The position numbers were made by a program, and so were the translations under genes. From a virus (lineage: Duplodnaviria; Caudoviricetes): a DNA stretch of 28,462 nucleotides. Location: the IMG/VR virus record IMGVR_UViG_3300048999_000131, positions 1-28,462 of that record; one strand, written 5' to 3'. The notes under the pieces are model-generated. The model ran no database searches, had not been told where the DNA came from, and saw only the letters and a list, made by a program, of their open reading frames with translations. Shown here piece after piece: positions 3 to 16,584 of this stretch (its first letter is position 1; each line of letters opens with the position of its first letter).

Positions 3-686
3 CAGGCGTACATCATGTCCGGCACCGAGGGCGAAGTCCGTGTGACTCCGTTCGAGGGCAAGCGTGTTCCGGTGCGGTTCTTCCGCATCGCCTCGCGTCC
101 CGCGATCCGCAAGGAGGACCTGTTCTACCTGCGTATCAACGCGGTCGAGCAGGCCCAGGACGAGACCAAGCAGGCGATCCTCAAGCAGGAGGACACTCGC
201 CTGCTCGTCCTGCTCCAGGCCGCGCTGACGGACTACGCCACGCGCCCGGACCACACGGTCACCCCGAACCACAACATCACCGAGGCGTCGGGCTACCTGA
301 CGCCGGGGTCGCTGTACTCGGCCGTCGCGATGACGGACATGCACGAGCTTCAGAGCGCGCGCATCCTCATCAACCCGTTCGACTTCCGCGACCTCTACCG
401 CTGGGACATCAACCAGACGGGCTGGGCCTTCAAGGACCGGGTCGTCGCGGGCGAGACCATCACCTCGTTCGGTGAGTTCCAGATCCAGCGGTCGATCATC
501 GTGCCCCAGGGCAAGGTGTTCCTCACGCCGGAGCCCAACTTCTTGGGCGTTTTCCCCGTTCTGTACAGCTTGGACGTGGAAGAGAACCATATGGTCGAAG
601 CGTTCTGGAAGGGATGGGTATTCGACGAGATGGTCAACATGTCGATCCTCAACCCCCGGGGCATCGCGACCATCACCAAGGCCTAG
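3..686 (+). CDS. Major capsid protein, 3' part (5'-truncated by window)
   Basis: Frame is open from the window start (QAYIMSGTEGEVRVTPFEGKRV...). Ends with a capsid-like C-terminus (WVFDEMVNMSILNPRGIATITKA) followed by a strong hairpin, and lies upstream of head-tail and tail genes. Confidence 0.8.
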   Translation, partial: QAYIMSGTEGEVRVTPFEGKRVPVRFFRIASRPAIRKEDLFYLRINAVEQAQDETKQAILKQEDTRLLVLLQAALTDYATRPDHTVTPNHNITEASGYLTPGSLYSAVAMTDMHELQSARILINPFDFRDLYRWDINQTGWAFKDRVVAGETITSFGEFQIQRSIIVPQGKVFLTPEPNFLGVFPVLYSLDVEENHMVEAFWKGWVFDEMVNMSILNPRGIATITKA

Positions 687-704
687 CAGGGCCCCTGACC
701 TGCC

Positions 705-740
705 GAAAGGCCCCCTCGGATCTCTCCGAGGGGGCCTTTC
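705..740. terminator. GC-rich hairpin: probable capsid terminator and 3' hairpin of repeat unit A on the minus strand
   Basis: GAAAGGCCCCCTCGGA-tctc-TCCGAGGGGGCCTTTC, a perfect 16-bp stem. Confidence 0.85.
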
Positions 741-815
741 CCATGCCTTGCCGCACCCAACCATGCCCTACCATGCCAAGCCCCGCGTTGCCGAGACCCT
801 GATGCTATCAGGGTC
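705..815 (-). ncRNA. GGY-NN pentamer repeat unit A (putative guide RNA)
   Basis: Minus strand: palindrome GACCCTGA-TAGCA-TCAGGGTC (815-795), then TC GGC-AA CGC-GG GGC-TT GGC-AT GGT-AG GGC-AT GGT-TG GGT-GC GGC-AA GGC-AT GG, then hairpin 740-705. Confidence 0.8.
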
Positions 816-821
816 ATGACT

Positions 822-941
822 GAGGGCGCCACCCCGAAGGATGACGCCCTCCCATGCCATGCCGTGCCGATCCCCGCCTGGCCGCACCATGCCGTGCCCT
901 GCCACGCCGCTCCGGGACAAGCCTTGATGACCTTGACTCTA
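822..941 (-). ncRNA. GGY-NN pentamer repeat unit B (about 15 NN)
   Basis: Plus strand reads NN-RCC repeats at 852-925 (NN = AT AT GT GA CC TG GC AT GT CT AC GC GG AA TT). Hairpin at 822-851 and its own promoter at 965-936. Confidence 0.8.
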
Positions 942-965
942 TACAACCCCATGCACTTCTGTCAA
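936..965 (-). promoter_or_regulatory. Sigma70/HrdB-type promoter driving unit B
   Basis: Minus strand TTGACA (965-960), 18-nt spacer, TAGAGT (941-936). Confidence 0.8.
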
Positions 966-969
966 CGAC

Positions 970-1084
970 GAAGGGGCCTCCCGTAGGAAGCCCCTTCTCC
1001 TTGCCATGCCTCACCAAGCCTGGCCGCGTCTTGCCAGACCTCGCCCAGCCTCGCCATGCCCCGATGACCCTGACTCTATCAGGG
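970..1084 (-). ncRNA. GGY-NN pentamer repeat unit C (about 13 NN)
   Basis: Hairpin 970-997. NN-RCC tract 999-1062 (TT AT TC AA TG GC TT AG TC CA TC AT CC). Palindrome CCCTGA-CTCTA-TCAGGG at 1068-1084. Confidence 0.8.
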
Positions 1085-1108
1085 CCTGGTAGGGTAGCGC
1101 CACCCCAT

Positions 1109-1182
1109 GGTGGATGTAGCTCAGCAGGTAGAGCCCCTGGTTGTGGTCCAGGAAGTCGCGGGTTCAAGTCCCGTCATTCACC
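1109..1182 (+). tRNA. tRNA-His (GTG)
   Basis: Acceptor stem GTGGATG/CATTCAC plus the G-1:C73 pair typical of bacterial tRNA-His. D arm GCTC/GAGC, anticodon arm CCTGG-TTGTGGT-CCAGG (GTG at 1143-1145), T arm GCGGG-TTCAAGT-CCCGT. CCA is not encoded. Confidence 0.95.
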
Positions 1183-1191
1183 CTCAACGAC

Positions 1192-1346
1192 GAGAACCCC
1201 CTCAGTGAGGGGGCTCTCTCCATGTCCTGCCACGCCATACCCAGCCCAGCCCGACCGTGCCAAGCCCGTCCGGGCCATGCCGCACCTAACCGGGCCTTGC
1301 GGTGCCGTGCCCCGCCTAGCCTCTGCCCCTGACTCTATCAGGGGCA
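1192..1346 (-). ncRNA. GGY-NN pentamer repeat unit D (about 21 NN, the longest)
   Basis: Hairpin 1192-1218. Tract 1219-1323 (AT CT AC AT CA CA CG GT AA CG GG AT GC TA GG TT GT GT CC TA TC). Palindrome TGCCCCTGA-CTCTA-TCAGGGGCA at 1324-1346. Confidence 0.8.
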
Positions 1347-1350
1347 TGAC

Positions 1351-1453
1351 GAAGGGGCCACCCGGAGGTGACCCCTTCTCCCTGCCGTGCCACGCCGTGC
1401 CAAACCTGGCCCAACCATGCCACACCACACCCCGCCTAGCCGTACCTCGCGGA
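1351..1453 (-). ncRNA. GGY-NN pentamer repeat unit E (about 15 NN)
   Basis: Hairpin 1351-1378. Tract 1379-1453 (CT GT AC GT AA TG CA AT AC AC CC TA GT TC GA). No palindromic leader; it starts about 18 nt after the stop codon at 1471. Confidence 0.75.
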
Positions 1454-1470
1454 GGTCGTACAGAGGGCCG

Positions 1471-2022
1471 CTACTGCTCCAACTGCTCCGGGATGGCCGT
1501 ACCCCTCAGAGCCTTCTCCAGACGGCTCAGACGGTCGTCCAGACCCGCCACGTCCGCTTTGGTCTCCCGGCGTACCTGCTTCAGCGCCTCCTCGGTCTTC
1601 TGCTGGCGCCGGGTCAGCGACCGGACCATGGTCTGGACCGCACCGAGTTTTTGGGACGTCGCGACGATGACTTCACGCGTTGCCGGGGAAACGTCGTTCA
1701 GGTCGGTGTTGTCCAGGACTCCACGGGCCTTGACCAACTGCTTCGCGGCCTTGCGGGAATGGTCCCGGGAGATCCCGACGTGGGACTCCGCATCCACGAT
1801 CTCGTAGCCGATGCCCTGCTTGTTCTTCAGGGTGCGGTGGTCCAGCTCCAGGAGTTTCTTCTTCGCCTGGTAGTACGGGCTCCGGTCCTCGCGGACGTCG
1901 TACCCGAGCCACTCGGAGAGCTGGGCGTAGGTGACAACATCACCCGTACGCAGCTCTACGAGCTGTTCGTACACAGTGACCCAGCGAGCCCTGTCGCCGT
2001 TCGGGGAGAACGGAGTGCGCAT
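1471..2022 (-). CDS. Hypothetical 183-aa protein with a winged-HTH-like N-terminus and coiled-coil C-terminus; partner of the RAMP-like gene
   Basis: ATG at 2022 lies 2 nt after the stop of 2025-2603. Contains TGDVVTYAQLSEWLG...GIGYEIV and a heptad-like C-terminus. Confidence 0.7.
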   Translation of the reverse strand: MRTPFSPNGDRARWVTVYEQLVELRTGDVVTYAQLSEWLGYDVREDRSPYYQAKKKLLELDHRTLKNKQGIGYEIVDAESHVGISRDHSRKAAKQLVKARGVLDNTDLNDVSPATREVIVATSQKLGAVQTMVRSLTRRQQKTEEALKQVRRETKADVAGLDDRLSRLEKALRGTAIPEQLEQ

Positions 2023-2024
2023 GA

Positions 2025-2603
2025 TCAGTCCTCGATCTTCTCGACCACGGCCTCGAACCGGCCGAAGCGGGGACGGTAGTCGCCGAGGCCGATCATGACC
2101 CCGGCCTTCTCGGCGATCTCGGTGAAGGTGGGCAGGTCGATCTGGCCGTTGTCCACCAGGAAGTCGGCTTCCGTCACCCAGGTCCGGAACATCGGACGGG
2201 TGCGCATGACGCGGGAAGTGGTGACACCGACGGAGAGGCGCGAGACGAAGTTCTTGTCGGCCCACATTTCGTCAATGGCGCGAGGACCGTGGTAGCCGAC
2301 GGGGCAGACCTCGTCCAGTGCGATCACACCGCGCTCCACGTGACGGCCGAGCTTGTTGAGCTTGGCCGCCTCCACCAGGCACCGGTGGATGTTGATGCCC
2401 GGGATATAGGGACCGGCCGCCTCGTCGAAGTACAGGCCGCCCTCGAACTCGATCCGGGCCATGCGCTCCTGGTCGTCGTCCGTCTTCGTGCGCTTGGACG
2501 AGACCTCCTTCAGGCGCTTGGTGATGGGGTCGAGCGGGTCGGACAGACGCGCGTTGTGCATGAGGAGCGCGGTCGAACCGGTGATGTTCATTCGGACCTT
2601 CAT
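2025..2603 (-). CDS. Stand-alone Cas7/RAMP-like RNA-binding protein (Vipr-like), 192 aa
   Basis: N-terminal strand with ITGSTALLMHN, a YIPGINIHRCLVEAA segment, RVMRTRPMF and a C-terminal glycine loop IGLGDYRPRFGRF, in the order seen in RAMP/Cas7-group proteins. RBS AAGGAGG. Flanked by repeat units. Confidence 0.7.
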   Translation of the reverse strand: MKVRMNITGSTALLMHNARLSDPLDPITKRLKEVSSKRTKTDDDQERMARIEFEGGLYFDEAAGPYIPGINIHRCLVEAAKLNKLGRHVERGVIALDEVCPVGYHGPRAIDEMWADKNFVSRLSVGVTTSRVMRTRPMFRTWVTEADFLVDNGQIDLPTFTEIAEKAGVMIGLGDYRPRFGRFEAVVEKIED

Positions 2604-2642
2604 AGGCCCTCCTTGCGGAGTCGGTGATCTCTGGCGTCTCCG

Positions 2643-2672
2643 ACATTACTACAAGAAATCCTGGAGCGTCAA
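2643..2672 (-). promoter_or_regulatory. Sigma70-type promoter for the RAMP-like operon
   Basis: Minus strand TTGACG (2672-2667), 18-nt spacer, TAATGT (2648-2643), about 40 nt upstream of ATG 2603. Confidence 0.65.
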
Positions 2673-2676
2673 TGAC

Positions 2677-2788
2677 GAAGGGCCCCGGATTTTAAACTCT
2701 GGGGCCCTTCTCCATGCGGTGCCTTACCCGGCCCGGCCCTGCCTAGCGATGCCACGCCGCGCCACGAGGGCTTCACTTTATCAGGGTC
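2677..2788 (-). ncRNA. GGY-NN pentamer repeat unit F (about 11 NN)
   Basis: Hairpin 2677-2710. Tract 2711-2767 (AT GT TT CG CG CT TA AT AC GC AC). Degenerate leader GACCCTGATAAAGTG on the minus strand, overlapping the stop of the HTH gene. Confidence 0.78.
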
Positions 2789-3077
2789 ATTCCGGTTCTG
2801 GATAGGCATCCTCGCGTCGCTTGCGCGGGGTGACGTGGATGCCCGTCTGCCGACGCCATTTCTTCTCGAACTCCTCGACGTCACGGAGGAGCCAGATGCG
2901 TCCGCAGTCGAGCTTCTTCCAGTGGGGGCAGCGGGCCTCGGTGATCTCGCTGACACGCTGCTTCGAGACGTGCCAGCGCTTCGACAGCTCAGACAGACCG
3001 AGCACATCCATCGTCGTGAGATCGACGAGGACGGGCCCGGACTCCTCTGTGGTCTCTTCCAGGGATGCGGTGCTCAT
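2787..3077 (-). CDS. Small HTH DNA-binding protein (AlpA/Xis-like)
   Basis: DVLGLSELSKRWHVSKQRVSEI...LDCGRIWLLRDVEEF fits an HTH-plus-wing pattern. The start codon is uncertain (3077, or the later Met of MDVLG). Confidence 0.65.
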   Translation of the reverse strand: MSTASLEETTEESGPVLVDLTTMDVLGLSELSKRWHVSKQRVSEITEARCPHWKKLDCGRIWLLRDVEEFEKKWRRQTGIHVTPRKRREDAYPEPE

Positions 3078-3160
3078 GGGATCAAGGATCTCACATGGGG
3101 TTGACATTGTCATGGTCTGCGATGCATGCTGATGGTGCTTCACTCGCGAGCCCCCAATGC

Positions 3161-3193
3161 AGAAGCCCCGGCACCCCCCCCGCCGGGGCTTCT
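3161..3193. terminator. Hairpin at the island boundary
   Basis: AGAAGCCCCGGC-N9-GCCGGGGCTTCT. Confidence 0.7.
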
Positions 3194-3196
3194 TGC

Positions 3197-3230
3197 TGTT
3201 CGATCGCCTGTGACTCCGCGTAAGGGGTGA
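3197..3230 (+). promoter_or_regulatory. Putative phage late promoter motif (variant copy)
   Basis: TGTT-N20-TAAGGGGTGA, with the same spacing as the five other copies. Confidence 0.55.
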
Positions 3231-3257
3231 GAGAACCCCAGCTTTCGAGGAGTCACC

Positions 3258-3791
3258 ATGCCTGTCGGCGCGATCGTTGCCCGTAACCGGATGGACGGAG
3301 TGACCGTCCTCGCATCGGACGTCAAGGGCTCCCACTCAGTGGAGTGGGCAGCCCTCGGCGACCCCAGCGGAGACGACATCCAGTTCATCCCCAACGAGGT
3401 CCTGGAGTCGGTCGCCTTCCGCCGCGCGGTGTCGCGCGGGATCGTGGAGATCATGGAAGACGAGTCGGACCCGGACGTCGTCGGAGCCCTCGCAGCGCAG
3501 GTGGCCGCCTTCAAGCGGCGCCAGGAAGGCGCCAAGGAGGACGTGCAGGTCACGATCGACAGGCCGACGAGCCGCGACTCCCTCTCCGTCTTCTGCGTCG
3601 GTCCCGACTCCCGGGGTATCGGAAAGTGCGGACAGGCGGTGGCCGTCCCCGAGAAGCAGCTCAAGGACGTACCTCCGCTCTGCACCCAGCACAAGCATCT
3701 CGCCGCCCAGTTCGTCCCCGAGGTCGTCAACGGGGCCGAGGACAAGGTGGAATGGGTGCACGTCACCCTCGGCGCGCGCGAGCGCCTCTAG
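3258..3791 (+). CDS. Hypothetical protein of the head module (C-terminal Cys/His cluster)
   Basis: RBS GAGGAG, high-GC3 codon usage, C...C...CxxH near the C-terminus. Confidence 0.7.
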   Translation: MPVGAIVARNRMDGVTVLASDVKGSHSVEWAALGDPSGDDIQFIPNEVLESVAFRRAVSRGIVEIMEDESDPDVVGALAAQVAAFKRRQEGAKEDVQVTIDRPTSRDSLSVFCVGPDSRGIGKCGQAVAVPEKQLKDVPPLCTQHKHLAAQFVPEVVNGAEDKVEWVHVTLGARERL

Positions 3792-3809
3792 GACCCGGAG
3801 GAGAACGAC

Positions 3810-4496
3810 ATGACGGAGAAGAACGACGAAGTTCCCGAGGACGCCAAGCGGGACTCCCAGGGGGTCCCCTACGGCACCGGTGACGAGACGGGCCAGAAGA
3901 CGTACGTCCGCGAGGGTGACACCCCCGTGGACACGGATCAGTCAGACCGGCCGGAGCCCAAGGGCTACTACGAGAGCCTCGATCACGTTCCGGACCCCAC
4001 GGCCATGACCGGGACCCTGGAGACCAGCGGTACCGGCGGAGGTGCTCACGAGACCCTGCGGGGCACCACGGGTGTCTTCGACGACCTGTCGCCGGTCGTG
4101 GAGCAGAACGGTCTCCCCCTGTACGGCGCGGACGCGGTCCAGGCCCTCTCGGGGGACTCCACCGGCCAGCCCTCTCCCCACGGGGGTGCGGACGCCCAGG
4201 TCTCCCAGAAGTCCGCCGGACCCGAGAGCGCGTCCTACAACGAGAACGTCATCGCCGGAGGCGGAGATCCCAACCTCCGCCAGAGCGGTGAGCCCGCAGG
4301 AGCCTTCACGACCGCTGTGACGGTCCAGGAGGACCCGGAGGGCACCGGAGCCCAGGAAGAGGGTGACGACGGCTCCAAGGAGCAGTCAGAGCCCGAGACG
4401 AAGGCTCCGGCGAAGAAGACCGCCGCGAAGAAGACGACGGCCGCCGCTCGTAAGACCTCTACGGTCGAGCCGACCGACGACACCAAGAACGCCTGA
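3810..4496 (+). CDS. Hypothetical acidic, low-complexity protein with a basic PAKKTAAKK tail
   Basis: RBS GGAGGAG; typical codon bias. Confidence 0.7.
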   Translation: MTEKNDEVPEDAKRDSQGVPYGTGDETGQKTYVREGDTPVDTDQSDRPEPKGYYESLDHVPDPTAMTGTLETSGTGGGAHETLRGTTGVFDDLSPVVEQNGLPLYGADAVQALSGDSTGQPSPHGGADAQVSQKSAGPESASYNENVIAGGGDPNLRQSGEPAGAFTTAVTVQEDPEGTGAQEEGDDGSKEQSEPETKAPAKKTAAKKTTAAARKTSTVEPTDDTKNA

Positions 4497-4515
4497 CCCG
4501 TAGGGGAGCAGAGCC

Positions 4516-5919
4516 ATGACGACACCGCCCGGATACGCGGGTAGCAATACCGACACCTCGGGCGTGTCCGGAAACTCCGGCCCTGCTTCCCGGGGGACCC
4601 AGGACCGTTCCTCGAACCAGGAGACCGCCACTCCGGCGGGGTACGGAGGCGACCCGGACACCGGTCTCGCTCCCGACCCCAACACGGCGGTCACCGGTAC
4701 CCCGGACACCTCGGGCACCAACGCCTCGAACGGTCCTTACACCCCCACGCCGCCCCCGCTCCTGAGCGGGACCGTCGACACCCAGCTCCTGGGCTGGCCC
4801 CAGACCCCGGGTGTCACCCAGGCCTACCGGGCTCCCACCCAGGGTGTCGGGTACATCAACGGCACCGGCGCGGCCGACACCACCTGGACCGACCGTCCGA
4901 TCTCGGACGGCTCCGTGCGTACGGACTACGTCCAGAACATGACGGGCACCCAGGACTCGTACACGATCGGCGCCAACGGCGCGAACGGACCCGGGACCAG
5001 CTCCCTCGTCCCGGTCGCTCCTTCCGGCACTCCGACGGTGGCCACCGGCCCCCGCTCGGTGACGGTCACCTGGGCCACCGTGGCCGACCCGGACCCCACC
5101 GCCCCCGTGCTCGGGTACGTCATCCTGGGCTCCACCGGCGGTACGACCTTCGTCGGCGACGGCAACACCTCGGTCGTGGTGACCAACCTGGTTCCCGGCC
5201 AGCTCTACAAGTTCCAGGTGGCCGCGCGGAACAAGAACGGCACCGGTCCGTACGGAACCATCTCCGCCACGGTCACGCCGTACAACCCGGACGAGGCCGA
5301 CGTCAACAAGCCCGGCGGCCTGGACCCGTACTGGAAGCAGAACCCGATCTACAACGCGGACGGCACGATCAAGTCCGGATCGGGTACGTCGGGCAAGCCC
5401 GGAGCGCCCACCTCGGTGGTCCTCTCCGGTACTACGACCCCCGGCGTCGTCAACGTCGCCTGGACGGCCCCGGCCTCCGGCGGCACGATCCTGAGCTACA
5501 CCGTGACCCTCTCCAGCGGGCAGACCAAGTCCATCCCGACGGGGACCACCACGGCGCAGTTCACCGGCGTCACCAGCGCGACGGCCATCACCGCCACGGT
5601 CACCTCGGAGGGCGCGGTCATGGACGCCACCTCCACGGCGTCGGCCGCCTTCGGCAAGCCGACCGCTCCTGCGGCTCCGACGATCACGAGCCCCTCGACC
5701 GGGACCGTCCACTGCGTGTGGACCGCTCCGTCCTCGGGTGCTCCGCTGAACTACATCGTCACCCTCTCCAACGCCCACACCCACACGGTCGCGGGCAACG
5801 TGCTCACCTACGACTTCACGGGTGAGACCACGGGTGCCTCGGTGACCGCCACGGTGGGCGCACAGGGGTCGGTCTCCACGACCACCTCCGCCGCGTCCAG
5901 CTCGGTCACGGTCGCCTGA
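4516..5919 (+). CDS. Fibronectin type III repeat virion protein (head or tail decoration)
   Basis: Three Fn3-like modules (VTVTWAT...GYVI...VTNLVPGQLYKFQVAARN; VNVAWTAP...YTVT; VHCVWTAP...YIVT); Thr/Gly/Pro-rich. Confidence 0.8.
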   Translation: MTTPPGYAGSNTDTSGVSGNSGPASRGTQDRSSNQETATPAGYGGDPDTGLAPDPNTAVTGTPDTSGTNASNGPYTPTPPPLLSGTVDTQLLGWPQTPGVTQAYRAPTQGVGYINGTGAADTTWTDRPISDGSVRTDYVQNMTGTQDSYTIGANGANGPGTSSLVPVAPSGTPTVATGPRSVTVTWATVADPDPTAPVLGYVILGSTGGTTFVGDGNTSVVVTNLVPGQLYKFQVAARNKNGTGPYGTISATVTPYNPDEADVNKPGGLDPYWKQNPIYNADGTIKSGSGTSGKPGAPTSVVLSGTTTPGVVNVAWTAPASGGTILSYTVTLSSGQTKSIPTGTTTAQFTGVTSATAITATVTSEGAVMDATSTASAAFGKPTAPAAPTITSPSTGTVHCVWTAPSSGAPLNYIVTLSNAHTHTVAGNVLTYDFTGETTGASVTATVGAQGSVSTTTSAASSSVTVA

Positions 5920-5934
5920 CCCGAGACGAGCAAG

Positions 5935-5968
5935 GAGAAGCCCCGGGACCTGACTCCCGGGGCTTCTC
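5935..5968 (+). terminator. Intrinsic terminator-like hairpin
   Basis: GAGAAGCCCCGGGA-cctgac-TCCCGGGGCTTCTC just after the Fn3 gene. Confidence 0.8.
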
Positions 5969-6000
5969 GCACTTCTGTTGGTAGCACTCTCACCCCCTCC

Positions 6001-6034
6001 TGTCGATCCTCCCGGATCACCCGGGAAGGGGTGA
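6001..6034 (+). promoter_or_regulatory. Putative late promoter motif
   Basis: TGTC-N20-GAAGGGGTGA. Confidence 0.65.
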
Positions 6035-6059
6035 GGACCCACGAGAGGAACGGGAGCGG

Positions 6060-6719
6060 ATGTCCACCACAAGCCAGCGCATGGGGCTCAAGATCCCCGA
6101 CGGGTCGGACCCGTTCCTGCGGACCGACTTCGTCCAGAACTACAACACCTTGGACAGCTATCCGGGTGTCAGGATCTGCACCTCCACCACGCGACCCTCC
6201 TGGGGCTCGGGCCAGGCGGGCATGCTCATCCTGGAGACCGACACCCGCCGGAACATGATGTGGACCGGCACCACGTGGCGGGAGATGCTCTACGGCCCGG
6301 CGGTCTGGTGGGGCTCCACACGCCCTCAGGTGACGGCGGGCGCGAACACGATCCTCACGTACACGGTCGGCACCTTCACCGTGAACCGGCCCGGCACCAT
6401 CCTGGGCCTGCTCACCACGGAGATGGCCTTGTCCTGCCGGGGTCTGAACGGCTGCAACGTCCGCTGCATGCTGGACGGCGTGGACGCCAATATCGACACC
6501 GGCAACGGCGGTGAGTTCATCGCCAGCGCACTGCCCAACAGCTCCACCTTCGGCACCGGCAAGTCGGTCCAGACGGTACCTTCGATGGGTATCCGCAACA
6601 TCTCGGCCGGTACCCACTCCATCGGCCTGCGGGTCCAGACGTCGACCAGCAACGTCGCGGATCTGAAGCTCACCTCCGTCCGCGCCATGGCCGTCTTCGT
6701 CAACGGCACGGACCGCTAG
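6060..6719 (+). CDS. Putative minor tail/fibre-type structural protein
   Basis: N-terminus resembles fibre proteins (MGLKIPDGSD...TTRPSW...GMLILETDT..MMWTGTTW); beta-rich C-terminus. Confidence 0.55.
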   Translation: MSTTSQRMGLKIPDGSDPFLRTDFVQNYNTLDSYPGVRICTSTTRPSWGSGQAGMLILETDTRRNMMWTGTTWREMLYGPAVWWGSTRPQVTAGANTILTYTVGTFTVNRPGTILGLLTTEMALSCRGLNGCNVRCMLDGVDANIDTGNGGEFIASALPNSSTFGTGKSVQTVPSMGIRNISAGTHSIGLRVQTSTSNVADLKLTSVRAMAVFVNGTDR

Positions 6720-6727
6720 GAGTCCTC

Positions 6728-7597
6728 ATGGCCCTGTACTGGAACGACCGCAAGTACGTCAGCCAGTACGCCATCGATCCGGTGGGGATCAAGCTCGTCC
6801 GCAACCAGGTCCCCATCGACGCCGACGACGGCGTGCAGGCGACGATGTTCTCGGAGACGACCGGCAACCAGGTCTTCACGCGGCCTGCGGACCATCCGGG
6901 CACCGGCGAGTACGAGGTGTCCTTCGCGAGCGCGGAGACGTCTGTACCGGGGCCGTACACCCTCACGTGGACCTACTCGGTTCTGGGCAGCCAGGAGTAC
7001 GTGGAGTCCGGGATCGAGATCGGTCCGGCCGCCCCCTCGTACGACTATCTGCCGGAAGCTTTCAAGGATCTCGTGGAACAGACGGTGCTCCGTCTGGCCG
7101 ACACGATCGACTCCCCGGGCGGTGGCCCGAACCTCACCACGTACGTGCAGTCGAAGTACGGGCGCGGCAGGATCGCCGAGCTGATGTTCATCGCCCTGGG
7201 CCGCATGAACACGATGGCCCAGCCCTTCCAGACGTACACCCTGGACGGGGTCGGGGGAGCCCAGTTCCCGGTGGCCCAGTGGGGACCCCTCCTGGGCACC
7301 CTCACGTGGATCGAGACCCTCAAGCACCTGATCCGCTCCTACACCGAGCAGCCGACCTTTATGGGTTCGGGAGACGTCTCCCGGCTGGACCGGCGCGACT
7401 ACACCCAGCGGTGGCGGGATGTGCTCATGGAGGAGGAGGCGGCGGCCAAGAGCCAGCTCGATGTCTTCAAGATCGCCTCCATGGGTCTCGGCCGACCGGC
7501 CGTACTGATCTCCGGCGGGGTGTATGGCCGATATGGCCCAACTAGGATGGCGGGGTCGGTAGCTGCCCGTCCGAGGTATTGGACCAGATTTTACTGA
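6728..7597 (+). CDS. Putative head-to-tail adaptor
   Basis: RBS AGGAG, Ig-like N-terminus with a helical C-terminus, and position in the head-tail module. Confidence 0.5.
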   Translation: MALYWNDRKYVSQYAIDPVGIKLVRNQVPIDADDGVQATMFSETTGNQVFTRPADHPGTGEYEVSFASAETSVPGPYTLTWTYSVLGSQEYVESGIEIGPAAPSYDYLPEAFKDLVEQTVLRLADTIDSPGGGPNLTTYVQSKYGRGRIAELMFIALGRMNTMAQPFQTYTLDGVGGAQFPVAQWGPLLGTLTWIETLKHLIRSYTEQPTFMGSGDVSRLDRRDYTQRWRDVLMEEEAAAKSQLDVFKIASMGLGRPAVLISGGVYGRYGPTRMAGSVAARPRYWTRFY

Positions 7598-7617
7598 GTT
7601 TGTCTAGTAATGTCCAT

Positions 7618-7646
7618 TTGTCAGGGCACCAAGCACCTGATAACGT
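7618..7646 (+). promoter_or_regulatory. Sigma70-type promoter with the same palindromic -10 context as the repeat units
   Basis: TTGTCA (7618-7623), 17-nt spacer, TAACGT (7641-7646), embedded in CCTGA-TAACG-TCAGG. Confidence 0.55.
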
Positions 7647-7651
7647 CAGGG

Positions 7652-7763
7652 CTGCGGTGAAACCGGTCCCTCCGGCGGATCCGGCCCCCAGTGGCGAGAG
7701 GGATTTTAAAAACCACTGGCTAACGATGGGCCCCCGGCGCGCTAGAACGCGTGGACGGGGGCC
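7652..7763 (+). ncRNA. Candidate structured ncRNA
   Basis: Intergenic and downstream of the promoter. Interleaved pairings TCCCTC/GAGGGA and CCAGTGG/CCACTGG, with terminal stem GGCCCCCG/CGGGGGCC. Confidence 0.4.
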
Positions 7764-7797
7764 TGTCGCATGTCTGACAACTCCCCGGAAAGGGTGG
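7764..7797 (+). promoter_or_regulatory. Putative late promoter motif
   Basis: TGTC-N20-GAAAGGGTGG. Confidence 0.6.
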
Positions 7798-7808
7798 AGG
7801 TGGTCCCC

Positions 7809-7985
7809 ATGGCCTATTCGGTCACCATCGCGACCGGCAAGACGAATGTCGTGCTCCCCAACGGGAACCTGTACCAGGCGGGTGATGTGGCGATCCTGTC
7901 GGACGATCAGTTCGGTCAGATGCTCGCCGCCACGAAGACCGCCATCTTCTCGGCGTCCTCGATCATCGCGGTTCCCAACAGCTAG
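7809..7985 (+). CDS. Small hypothetical structural protein (58 aa, MAYSVTIATG...)
   Basis: RBS GGAGGTGG before ATG 7809; typical codon bias. Confidence 0.65.
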   Translation: MAYSVTIATGKTNVVLPNGNLYQAGDVAILSDDQFGQMLAATKTAIFSASSIIAVPNS

Positions 7986-8091
7986 ACCCTGATAGAGTCA
8001 GGGTCAGCAAGGCATCGCAGTGCCGGGCTCGGCTGGGTGGGGCAAGGCAGCGCTAGGCAAGGGGAAGGGCCCTTCGAGAGAAGGGCCCTTC
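7985..8091 (+). ncRNA. GGY-NN pentamer repeat unit G (orphan, 11 NN)
   Basis: GACCCTGA-TAGAG-TCAGGGTC (7985-8005), then AGC-AA GGC-AT CGC-AG TGC-CG GGC-TC GGC-TG GGT-GG GGC-AA GGC-AG CGC-TA GGC-AA GGG, then hairpin GAAGGGCCCTTC-gaga-GAAGGGCCCTTC (8064-8091). Confidence 0.82.
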
Positions 8092-8095
8092 GTCG

Positions 8096-8129
8096 TGTCC
8101 TGGCCAGATCGAGCCCGATGAAGGGGTGA
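8096..8129 (+). promoter_or_regulatory. Putative late promoter motif
   Basis: TGTC-N20-GAAGGGGTGA. Confidence 0.65.
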
Positions 8130-8150
8130 AGGATCCATCCCGGAGGCGAC

Positions 8151-9695
8151 ATGGCCCGCTATTTGTACCCCCAGGATCGTCTGGTCTTCCGCTATGGCGC
8201 TCCTGGGACTCCGCTGTACTCCCCTCAGGGGGAGACCCTCACGATCTACGCCGACGCGGGCGGCACGACTCTGGCGAGCATCCAGGAGCCGGACGGGACC
8301 CCTACGGACTCGACCCTGGACATCGGGGCGGACTGCCTGATCCCGGAGTTCAAGGGACCCGACGCGGCGACCACCGTGTGGGCCAAGAACCGTGCCGGGG
8401 ATCTGACCCCCTTGTTCGCCCAGACCGGCCAGTTCCTCACGCCTGGTTCCTCGGCGGTCACCTCTGTCAACGGTCACACGGGCGCGGTAGTCCTGGACTC
8501 GGCCGATGTGGACGCCTATCCGCAGGACGACGGCACGGCTCTGGCGGGGCGCGTCACCACCGTGGAGTCGGGCCGCCTGCTGGCGGTCAACAACCTCTCC
8601 GACCTGAGCAACCCCGCCTCGGCCCGTGCAGCCCTCAGCCTGGGCAACGCGGCCGTCCGGTCGGTCGGCACCACGAACAGCACCGTGGCCGCCGGAGACG
8701 CGCCCTCTGCGGCCGTCACAGCCCACATCGCGGCCTCGGACCCCCATGGTGACCGCGCCTACGCGGACGGGAGCAAGCTCGCCAAGAGCGCCAACCTCTC
8801 CGACGTGGCCAACCCGGCGACCGCTCGGACGAGCCTGGGACTGGGCTCGGCAGCCGTCAGGGCAGTAGGTGCGACCTCTGCCGACGTCGCGGCCGGAGAT
8901 GCCCCTGCGAACGCCGTCACAGCCCACGTGGCGGCTTCCGACCCGCACGGGGACCGCGCCTTCGCCACGGCGGCCATCGGGACGCACACGGCCGCCACGG
9001 ACCCTCACGGGGACCGTGCGTACGCGGACACGGCGAAGCTCGCGAAGAGCGCGAATCTCTCGGACGTCCAGACCCCCGCCACGGCCCGGACGAACCTCGG
9101 CCTGACCGCCATCGCCACGGCCGCCTTCGGCACCACGGCGGGCACCGTGACCCAGGGCAACGACAGCCGTCTCACCAACGCCCGTACGCCGACCGCTCAC
9201 GCCGCCACGCACGCCTCTGCGGGCTCGGACCCCATCACGCTGGCCCAGAGCCAGGTGACCGGCCTCACGGCAGCCCTGGGCACCTACCTGCCCCTCGCGG
9301 GCGGCACCCTGACCGGAGACCTGGTCCTCCAGGGCACCAGCAAGGCGTACCGGCTCCGGCGTGGGGGAGCGGGCCTGGACTTCGAGGCCGCCGGGGTCGA
9401 CATGGTTCTGTCGAACTGGTCGGCCGGAGACTTCACCGGGACCCAGCGCAGCTACATCCGCTTCTCGGCCGACGCCCAGAACATGCAGGTCGCGGGCAAG
9501 GTCGAGTTCGTGGATGCCCTGTACGGCTCGGCCAAGCACATCCTGGACGGCGCTACGAACACCGCTGCCTTCTTCGGTGCGGCAGCGGTCGGCAGGCAGA
9601 CCGTGAGCGGCTCCAAGGCCTCCGGAGCGGCCTTGACGAGCCTCCTCGCGGCCATGGTGAACCTCGGCCTGATCACCGACTCCACGACGGCCTAG
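8151..9695 (+). CDS. Tail fibre-like protein with internal repeats
   Basis: VTSVNGHTGAVVL motif, three NLSD(L/V)xxPAxARxxLGL-type repeats, three HxAAxDPHGDRA repeats, and YLPLAGGTLTG. Confidence 0.75.
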   Translation: MARYLYPQDRLVFRYGAPGTPLYSPQGETLTIYADAGGTTLASIQEPDGTPTDSTLDIGADCLIPEFKGPDAATTVWAKNRAGDLTPLFAQTGQFLTPGSSAVTSVNGHTGAVVLDSADVDAYPQDDGTALAGRVTTVESGRLLAVNNLSDLSNPASARAALSLGNAAVRSVGTTNSTVAAGDAPSAAVTAHIAASDPHGDRAYADGSKLAKSANLSDVANPATARTSLGLGSAAVRAVGATSADVAAGDAPANAVTAHVAASDPHGDRAFATAAIGTHTAATDPHGDRAYADTAKLAKSANLSDVQTPATARTNLGLTAIATAAFGTTAGTVTQGNDSRLTNARTPTAHAATHASAGSDPITLAQSQVTGLTAALGTYLPLAGGTLTGDLVLQGTSKAYRLRRGGAGLDFEAAGVDMVLSNWSAGDFTGTQRSYIRFSADAQNMQVAGKVEFVDALYGSAKHILDGATNTAAFFGAAAVGRQTVSGSKASGAALTSLLAAMVNLGLITDSTTA

Positions 9696-16081: not shown

Positions 16082-16534
16082 CTAGTAGACATGACCACAA
16101 CCCTCTTCGTGAGCGTCCACGGGACACAGGCCGTGACTACGCAGGATGTTCACCTCGTTCGTGACCGGCTCCAGGTGCGCGAGGTAATTCACGCAGTCCT
16201 TCCGGACGCACCCCTTGGCCTTGACGTGGTCAACGGTCAGGCCGTCGGGGATCGGGCCAACGAAGTGCTCGTAGGCCCACCTGTGGGCCGGAGAGTTCTT
16301 TCCGTCGGCCTTCTTGAAGATGCCGTAGCCCTTGCGGTCCGTGTAGGCCGTCCAGGGCCAGCACTCGGTGTCGCTCCGGCGGTCCACGTGGGACCAGAAG
16401 CGTGCCTCCTCGTCCCCTCGGATGAAGGCCACGGCGTCGGTACTCCCGTACCGCCGGAGTCGGCTGTAGTGCTTCACACAGAGGCCCTTGGCCCGAGCAG
16501 CGGTGGGGCAGTCGTCCACGGTGCAATTCGCCAT
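16082..16534 (-). CDS. Free-standing HNH endonuclease
   Basis: Zinc ribbon CTVDDC...GLCVKHY, then RFWSHVD...CWPWTA...GYG...AHRWAYE...DH...CVN..HLEPVT..VN. TAGTGT lies 7 nt before the ATG, suggesting a leaderless mRNA. Confidence 0.88.
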   Translation of the reverse strand: MANCTVDDCPTAARAKGLCVKHYSRLRRYGSTDAVAFIRGDEEARFWSHVDRRSDTECWPWTAYTDRKGYGIFKKADGKNSPAHRWAYEHFVGPIPDGLTVDHVKAKGCVRKDCVNYLAHLEPVTNEVNILRSHGLCPVDAHEEGCGHVY

Positions 16535-16584
16535 GGCGACGACACTACCAGCGAGAATCACCGTTGCTACACGATGGAGACGAG

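Follow-up and report, generated by a model that had tools for sequence, protein, structure and literature searches.

A virus record of 28.5 kb that spans virion genes of a Bxz1/cluster C-like myovirus (28,462 nucleotides in total, hereafter termed the window) contains what, judging from its sequence, is a VIPR system, in which a guide unit located behind the major capsid gene (unit A) spells a stretch of this neighbouring gene in a code that skips every third base, and does so with a fit that is better by one base for the copies of many sister phages than for its own. The placement of a guide beside the gene that it reads recurs in relatives. Unit A and similar guides are likely weapons against close kin, since the sisters' copies fit better than their own recoded copies; for unit A, with its margin of a single base, silencing of the own gene may occur as well. 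In the explanation that we favour, and which we regard as reasonably probable, the Vipr protein would silence or block an essential virion gene of sister phages, with the carrier's own copy being recoded and the guide being linked to the resistant allele. VIPR and its code are already published; what would be new are the predicted guides against essential virion genes of closest kin, situated 0.1–0.7 kb from the recoded own copy.

According to preprints from 2026, VIPR is a CRISPR-related phage silencer, whose code with a skip of one nucleotide was shown in vitro and in vivo. The Vipr protein of the Escherichia phage SUSP1 coats its RNA and, whichever strand is targeted, engages two out of three consecutive bases in pairing, with transcription being repressed without cutting (10.64898/2026.04.26.720920). 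The window locus is classified as a type II-like VIPR system (Table 1). Its Vipr protein shows about 40% identity to Felixounavirus homologues and shares PHROG 4652 with Vipr of phage wV8. The product of the adjoining vap1-like gene matches its PHROG only weakly (E 8.5e-8), is 24% identical to gp33 of the phage LittleE and belongs to no named family in the Atlas. No nuclease family was detected in either of the two genes, and the HNH gene of the contig is 13 kb away. A direct scan of viral records for Vipr relatives returned none; when individual records were searched, three out of 30 and one out of 24 contained such a relative, many of the records being fragments. The locus resembles the type II systems of SUSP1 and of a Pseudomonas fulva prophage in its homologous Vipr with a neighbour of the vap1 family, the 11–13 GGY/NN repeats per unit, a 3' tail, the skip of one nucleotide and wobble-aligned sites on either strand (10.64898/2026.04.26.720920; 10.64898/2026.04.26.720927; PDB 36pp). 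Unlike these, it resides in an actinobacterial myovirus and its units are dispersed, and every unit has a separate promoter element as well as a tail formed by a simple hairpin. Close relatives of the capsid were found on viral contigs of 150–166 kb and on Streptomyces contigs of 151–157 kb, one of which is called a plasmid; based on these contigs and the cluster C-like capsid, the host of the phage is probably an actinomycete.

Table 1. Location of the guide units, their putative control elements and target sites, and the neighbouring genes in the window.
Feature	Position	Strand	Detail
Major capsid gene, 3' part (5' end beyond contig)	3..686	+	E 5e-74 against PHROG 2522 (major head protein); capsids of cluster C mycobacteriophages are 61-63% identical
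Capsid site spelled by unit A, 17/22	351..383	+ (coding strand)	Ser codon 354-356 is AGC here, TCN in 51/81 loci
Capsid segment matched by the guides that lie next to the capsid gene in L005 and L025	537..575	+	window copy with TTG/AGC/TTG swaps
Hairpin with 16-bp stem, forming the 3' tail of unit A	705..740	-	fold z -5.7
Unit A, predicted vrRNA guide, 11 GGY/NN repeats, convergent on capsid gene	743..797	-	360 nt from its capsid site
Likely -10 element of unit A, TG-N-hexamer	802..810	-	from sequence; same motif before G004 units
Unit B, guide	854..923	-	no target found in sister phages
Sigma-70-type promoter before unit B, 10/12 consensus matches	936..965	-	1 found vs 0.3 expected
Unit C, guide	1001..1060	-	no target found
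tRNA-His, opposite strand, between units C and D	1110..1183	+	tRNA inside guide cluster
Unit D, guide, 21 repeats, double length	1222..1326	-	no target found
Unit E, guide	1382..1446	-	no target found
vap1-like accessory gene, 183 aa	1471..2022	-	PHROG 5926, to which the gene following vipr in LittleE and in Felixounavirus wV8 also belongs
vipr gene, 192 aa, RAMP homologue	2025..2603	-	residues 4-186 match SUSP1 Vipr (PDB 36pp), E 2.9e-37
Unit F, guide, upstream of vipr	2714..2768	-	no target found
Unit G, solitary guide at a distance of 5 kb from vipr	8006..8060	+	own -10 element 7990-7998; tail hairpin ~8064-8091
Tail-fibre-like gene adjoining unit G	8151..9695	+	matches tail fibre PHROGs at E values between 1e-11 and 1e-5
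Unit G site, codons 3-13 of the tail-fibre-like gene	8157..8189	+	own copy 17/20

Seven guide units (A–G) composed of arrays of GGY/NN pentamers flank vipr. No CRISPR-like family is found among the window repeats listed, nor by Rfam over positions 600–8300. Each unit of the window is preceded by a -10-like element similar to that of unit A, whose TG-N-hexamer we take to be an extended -10 promoter element. A palindrome around this element was considered as operator and rejected; only its core is kept in the relative G004 and the palindrome was therefore taken as promoter motif. A pattern search anchored on the promoter again recovered only G004 and the locus L008. Hairpin tails follow units A, C and G (z -5.4 for the tail of G), and that of unit A occupies the place at which guide-less sisters contain a terminator-like hairpin after the capsid stop. 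In G004, a whole record of 159.7 kb, we found 20 guide units in two arrays and many single copies that are dispersed over the genome, most of them without target among sister phages. When these units are counted by eye, only two dinucleotides occur as pair 1 (20/20 units) and pair 2 ends in T in 17/20, and the tail-proximal pairs thus look partly like a fixed scaffold. For units B–F, a search confined to 1.16 Mb of sister phages revealed no target above the null. Unit D is about twice the usual length and perhaps consists of two fused or staggered guides.

The variable pairs of unit A agree with the capsid codons as the preliminary description had noted. At this location, which is the best site for unit A within the window, 17 of 22 read bases match, or 17 of 20 if the tail-proximal pair is dropped, including a run of seven consecutive pairs (363–382) in codon phase, where the skipped base coincides with the third position of the codon. 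Among 42 combinations of seven guides, three skip lengths and two reading orders, this is the sole run of seven; other skip lengths and a reversed order gave nothing comparable, and a skip of one in codon phase is the only setting in which units A and G match. Randomised units of equal quality are rare, with 13 of 3000 pair shuffles reaching 17/22 and one a run of seven anywhere in the window, 12 and none of 3000 letter shuffles doing so, and none of 2000 shuffles attaining 17/20 after omission of the tail-proximal pair. The probability of 2e-4 initially assigned to a chance match is of the right size for a single guide, but it takes no account of the selection from about eight guides or of the omitted pair, and after correction it amounts to approximately 0.003–0.03. 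The match is beyond chance and, because it is replicated in relatives, we take it as settled. Its interpretation as support for a code skipping every third base that is read by a RAMP-like protein was correct, although this code had already been published and tested for VIPR (10.64898/2026.04.26.720920). The suggested seed region at the 5' end of the RNA is not supported, because assembly starts at the 3' tail, with filament growth and unwinding proceeding from there toward the 5' end and the protomers resolving in the same direction in cryo-EM structures (10.64898/2026.04.26.720927), and because the badly matching tail-proximal pairs appear to be a partly fixed scaffold. The accessible text of the same source contains no data on mismatch tolerance or seed position. 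One of the three remaining mismatches, in pair 4 over an Arg codon that is invariant throughout the clade, would be an rU-dG wobble, and pairs 3–11 could therefore all pair.

In the best 80 of 305 capsid relatives from IMG/VR, which share 88–100% identity and serve as our set of sister capsids, unit A scores 18/22 in 35 loci, 17 in 20, 16 in 16 and 15 in 9, and in none higher. The proposal that related phages are the targets is borne out in so far as these 35 sisters exceed the own copy by one base, which stems from a TCN Ser codon in place of the AGC of the window and resides in pair 2, but the exact pattern proposed as a query was not recovered from any capsid gene: its 18 bases are found in no viral contig and in 88 metagenome stretches of which none is a capsid homologue, and a pattern of 16 bases is found in 27 viral stretches, again without a capsid homologue (best tblastn E 0.72 over viral and metagenome stretches). 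Similarly, the 234 capsid homologues that were aligned out of 269 proteins did not include a perfect target, with no more than 8 of the 11 encoded residues being matched. A search of 1.16 Mb taken from 11 sister records, of which six are whole, placed all the best sites of unit A at the capsid site with 18/20, whereas the null from 40 shuffles did not exceed 16. The soil run X1 contains a contig with the TCG allele at a depth of 23.8, either of a sister or of a carrier, beside cassette contigs at 9–11, and no listed contig with the letters of the window over 297–395 (82% of the run being covered). A contig from run X2 spanning 240–738 has kept AGC and extends to the tail of unit A, stopping short of the guide.

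A unit is the first feature after the capsid gene in eight loci, comprising the window, L001, L002, L005, L008, L013, where it follows after 630 nt, L016 and L025. This first unit reads the capsid gene in five of the eight (the window, L005, L008, L016 and L025), and none of 22 later units does so. The five guides are mutually unrelated and address four sites at distances of about 200–730 nt, with two of the guides reading the coding strand and the other three the template strand, and the antisense sites of L008, L016 and L025 also skip the wobble base. For the first guides of L002 and L013 no target was found. The single unit after the capsid gene of L001 (L001:4741-4790) has its best site in early codons of the window vipr gene (14/16, not above null), and it would be an anti-VIPR solo guide like published ones. 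In five sisters whose capsids are near-identical, other guides occupy this place or a guide is missing there. With the window protein as query, vipr was not found in the fragments L016 and L025.

A comparable relationship was found for unit G, whose site is located in a gene at a distance of 100 nt and scores 19/20 in the sisters G002 and G003 and 18/20 in G001, with the own copy containing a TTG Leu codon and a change from Phe to Tyr. The unit found in the place of G in G004 is related and has the same local best site (p 0.39), and its own gene has changed from Gln to Ser at this site. In a test for local targets of 40 guides, unit A, unit G and the unit G005:111498, which scores 17/22 in sisters and 15 at home, stand out at p 0.005, four further guides reach p 0.015–0.04 and the rest nothing, leaving 37 of 40 without a clear local target. 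Another instance is found in LittleE, an unrelated cultured phage with a VIPR cassette (L280:6391-6440) between the tape-measure and minor tail genes, which is partly annotated as hypothetical gp35 and is absent from all five sisters examined. Of its five units, only the one adjoining the tape-measure gene reads this gene, with 16/18 in four of the five sisters, 15/18 in the fifth (Baka) and 14/18 in its own copy (p 0.003), where the site carries a Met-to-Leu and a TTG change. Pairs 1–2 of this guide mismatch every sister site. Three units of the Gordonia phages Trine and MakoManhole showed no self match when compared with their own genomes.

The own capsid copy scores below that of sisters (best 80 of 305) in 80 of 80 cases for L016, 70 for L025, 69 for L005, 35 for unit A and 19 for L008. 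For unit A, 20 of these sisters tie with the own copy and 25 score lower, and among the 26 closest sisters the own copy is lower than 16; the case of L008 is weak, with 19 sisters higher, 34 equal and 27 lower. Most of the differences between own and sister copies at read sites are synonymous exchanges in which Ser, Leu or Arg changes from one of its codon classes to the other. In carriers, such swaps at codon positions 1 or 2 are found in 7 of 51 footprint codons compared to 17 of the 1079 codons elsewhere (p 5e-5 by Fisher test and 0.002 by permutation), with the footprints having been chosen after the matches were seen and the test not being fully independent because L005 and L025 share one footprint; across all loci the enrichment in footprints is not significant (p 0.09). 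For guides directed to the sense strand, a CTN-to-TTG swap amounts to an rG-dT wobble only. The capsid gene of the window is a mosaic, with codons 51–150 being nearest to the array-less L003 (4 differences) and codons 176–210 being nearest to the array carriers L001, L013 and L005; in the latter region L003 differs from the window in 17 of 75 bases, as one block, and over 537..575 the haplotype of the window is common to array carriers. The 3' end of the capsid gene thus seems to have travelled with the cassette, and the mosaic tract fits a co-conversion.

In the favoured explanation, the guide of unit A would be transcribed from its own promoter, and its variable pairs, spelling a conserved capsid stretch of the phage's own clade, would direct a Vipr filament to the capsid gene of a sister phage in the same cell, which would be silenced or blocked. 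Codon swaps at read positions probably protect the copy that the carrier has next to the guide, and such immunity would proceed via Ser TCN/AGY, Leu CTN/TTR and Arg CGN/AGR, the sole synonymous changes that touch these positions. Guide and resistant allele would be kept within 0.1–0.7 kb because recombination between sisters would otherwise join the guide to a sensitive allele. As phages that co-infect a cell lytically share their capsid protein, the most plausible gain would be that a resident, plasmid-like prophage keeps out superinfecting kin. Recoding through the classes of Ser, Leu and Arg would be how a guide that skips the wobble base still tells self from kin. As far as the accessible parts of the respective reports go, the published targets of VIPR comprise satellites, regulators of resident prophages and the VIPR loci of rivals, unlike the virion genes of sisters beside the guide described here (10.64898/2026.04.26.720920). 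The units share with the solo vrRNAs, which are directed against vipr and vrRNAs of relatives, their stand-alone nature, their targets in kin and a self score that is lower than the rival score, but differ in reading an essential gene adjoining the guide instead of VIPR parts, satellites or host REP repeats, and in an own copy that is recoded via amino acids with six codons, an escape route that is treated as closed in the same account (10.64898/2026.10.15.759431).

Unit A might also bind its own capsid gene and keep late genes off in the resident state, with incoming kin being blocked as well and self being distinguished from non-self by the timing of vipr or the guide. We consider this unlikely, even though several observations point in its direction. 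Pairs 3–11 fit the own gene exactly as they fit sisters, one wobble included, and with the tail-proximal pair dropped the own site scores 17/20, which is above the 80% threshold used in publications. Such binding may occur, given that the pairs near the tail have a partly fixed appearance and, in LittleE, fail to match the site of any sister; pairs 1–2 may not be read at all, although which pairs are read was judged guide by guide from separate match outputs. The relatives on plasmid-like Streptomyces contigs and a small gene upstream of unit F and vipr (2787–3077), which shows a sub-threshold helix-turn-helix match and is a possible regulator, would equally suit a resident state. What argues against it are the other guides reading a neighbour (L005, L016, L025, G, LittleE and G005), which are 2–4 bases worse on self through codon swaps, the finding of no self match at 80% or more in the surveys, as described in the accessible parts of the publication (10.64898/2026.04.26.720920), and the near-identical capsids of five sisters with their different or missing guides, unlike what is expected of a conserved regulator. 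The same diversity of first guides in near-identical phages, addressing four capsid sites on both strands and all within about 0.7 kb, could alternatively reflect the copying of pairs from adjoining DNA, either own or of a co-infecting sister, followed by drift of the own gene or guide away from autoimmunity. In the accessible text of two reports no mechanism of guide acquisition is described (10.64898/2026.04.26.720920, 10.64898/2026.10.15.759431), which leaves room for such a process. We hold it to be quite improbable, in light of the many units without local match (37/40 guides and 22/22 later units), a locus devoid of a candidate writing enzyme and the fact that selection for linkage gives the same pattern without a new enzyme. 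That the capsid match would be a coincidence or by-product, with the true target being an unrelated element, is very improbable and largely refuted by the shuffle tests and four more first guides that read the capsid gene. This idea draws on the lack of a perfect capsid target and on a 22/22 site in a single metagenome contig (L164), but the latter has a GC content of 40%, contains stops in the matching frame and is one of the 88 background matches to the 18-base pattern.

Beyond the exclusion of kin by linked guides and recoded alleles, the locus might act as an RNA-programmed, nuclease-free form of intronless homing, in which the filament would block the sister allele in cis and recombination would install the recoded allele, thereby spreading the guide cassette. 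Though rather unlikely, such a drive, if true, would explain the reading by only the nearest unit, the patchy presence in near-identical phages and the 3' capsid haplotype shared by carriers. Free-standing homing endonucleases have sites that are hundreds or thousands of bases off in neighbouring genes and cause marker exclusion, and the present units resemble those of T4-like phages in being intergenic elements with a site hundreds of bases away in a conserved neighbour gene of relatives, with flanks travelling along (PMC2988022). They differ in containing no endonuclease and in a specificity that resides in a reprogrammable RNA, and their arrangement is a prediction from sequence. In the literature, we found nothing that joins Vipr protein, homing, guide RNA and phage, and published tables of VIPR targets may list such cases. 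The placement of guides beside their targets bears on the origin of guides, and the pairs of own and sister alleles offer natural material for the study of mismatch tolerance and seed position in VIPR. With LittleE, which grows on Mycobacterium smegmatis and has many cassette-free sisters in cluster J, a cultured example is available as a ready experimental model.

Further features were observed in the course of the analysis. Pentamer arrays with irregular spacing, some of whose guides are common to several loci, are located 1.8–2.9 kb upstream of the capsid match in L028, L030–L034, L038, L042, L043 and L048, and no target above null was found for them in capsid regions. Back-to-back units without separate tails in L016 (4769–5142) and L025 (4765–4960) resemble published staggered arrays. 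A free-standing HNH endonuclease gene is located among the tail genes of the window (16082–16561, minus strand). In a run of C at position 3173, the contigs of runs X1 and X2 contain one extra C, and the window may thus carry a one-base slip.
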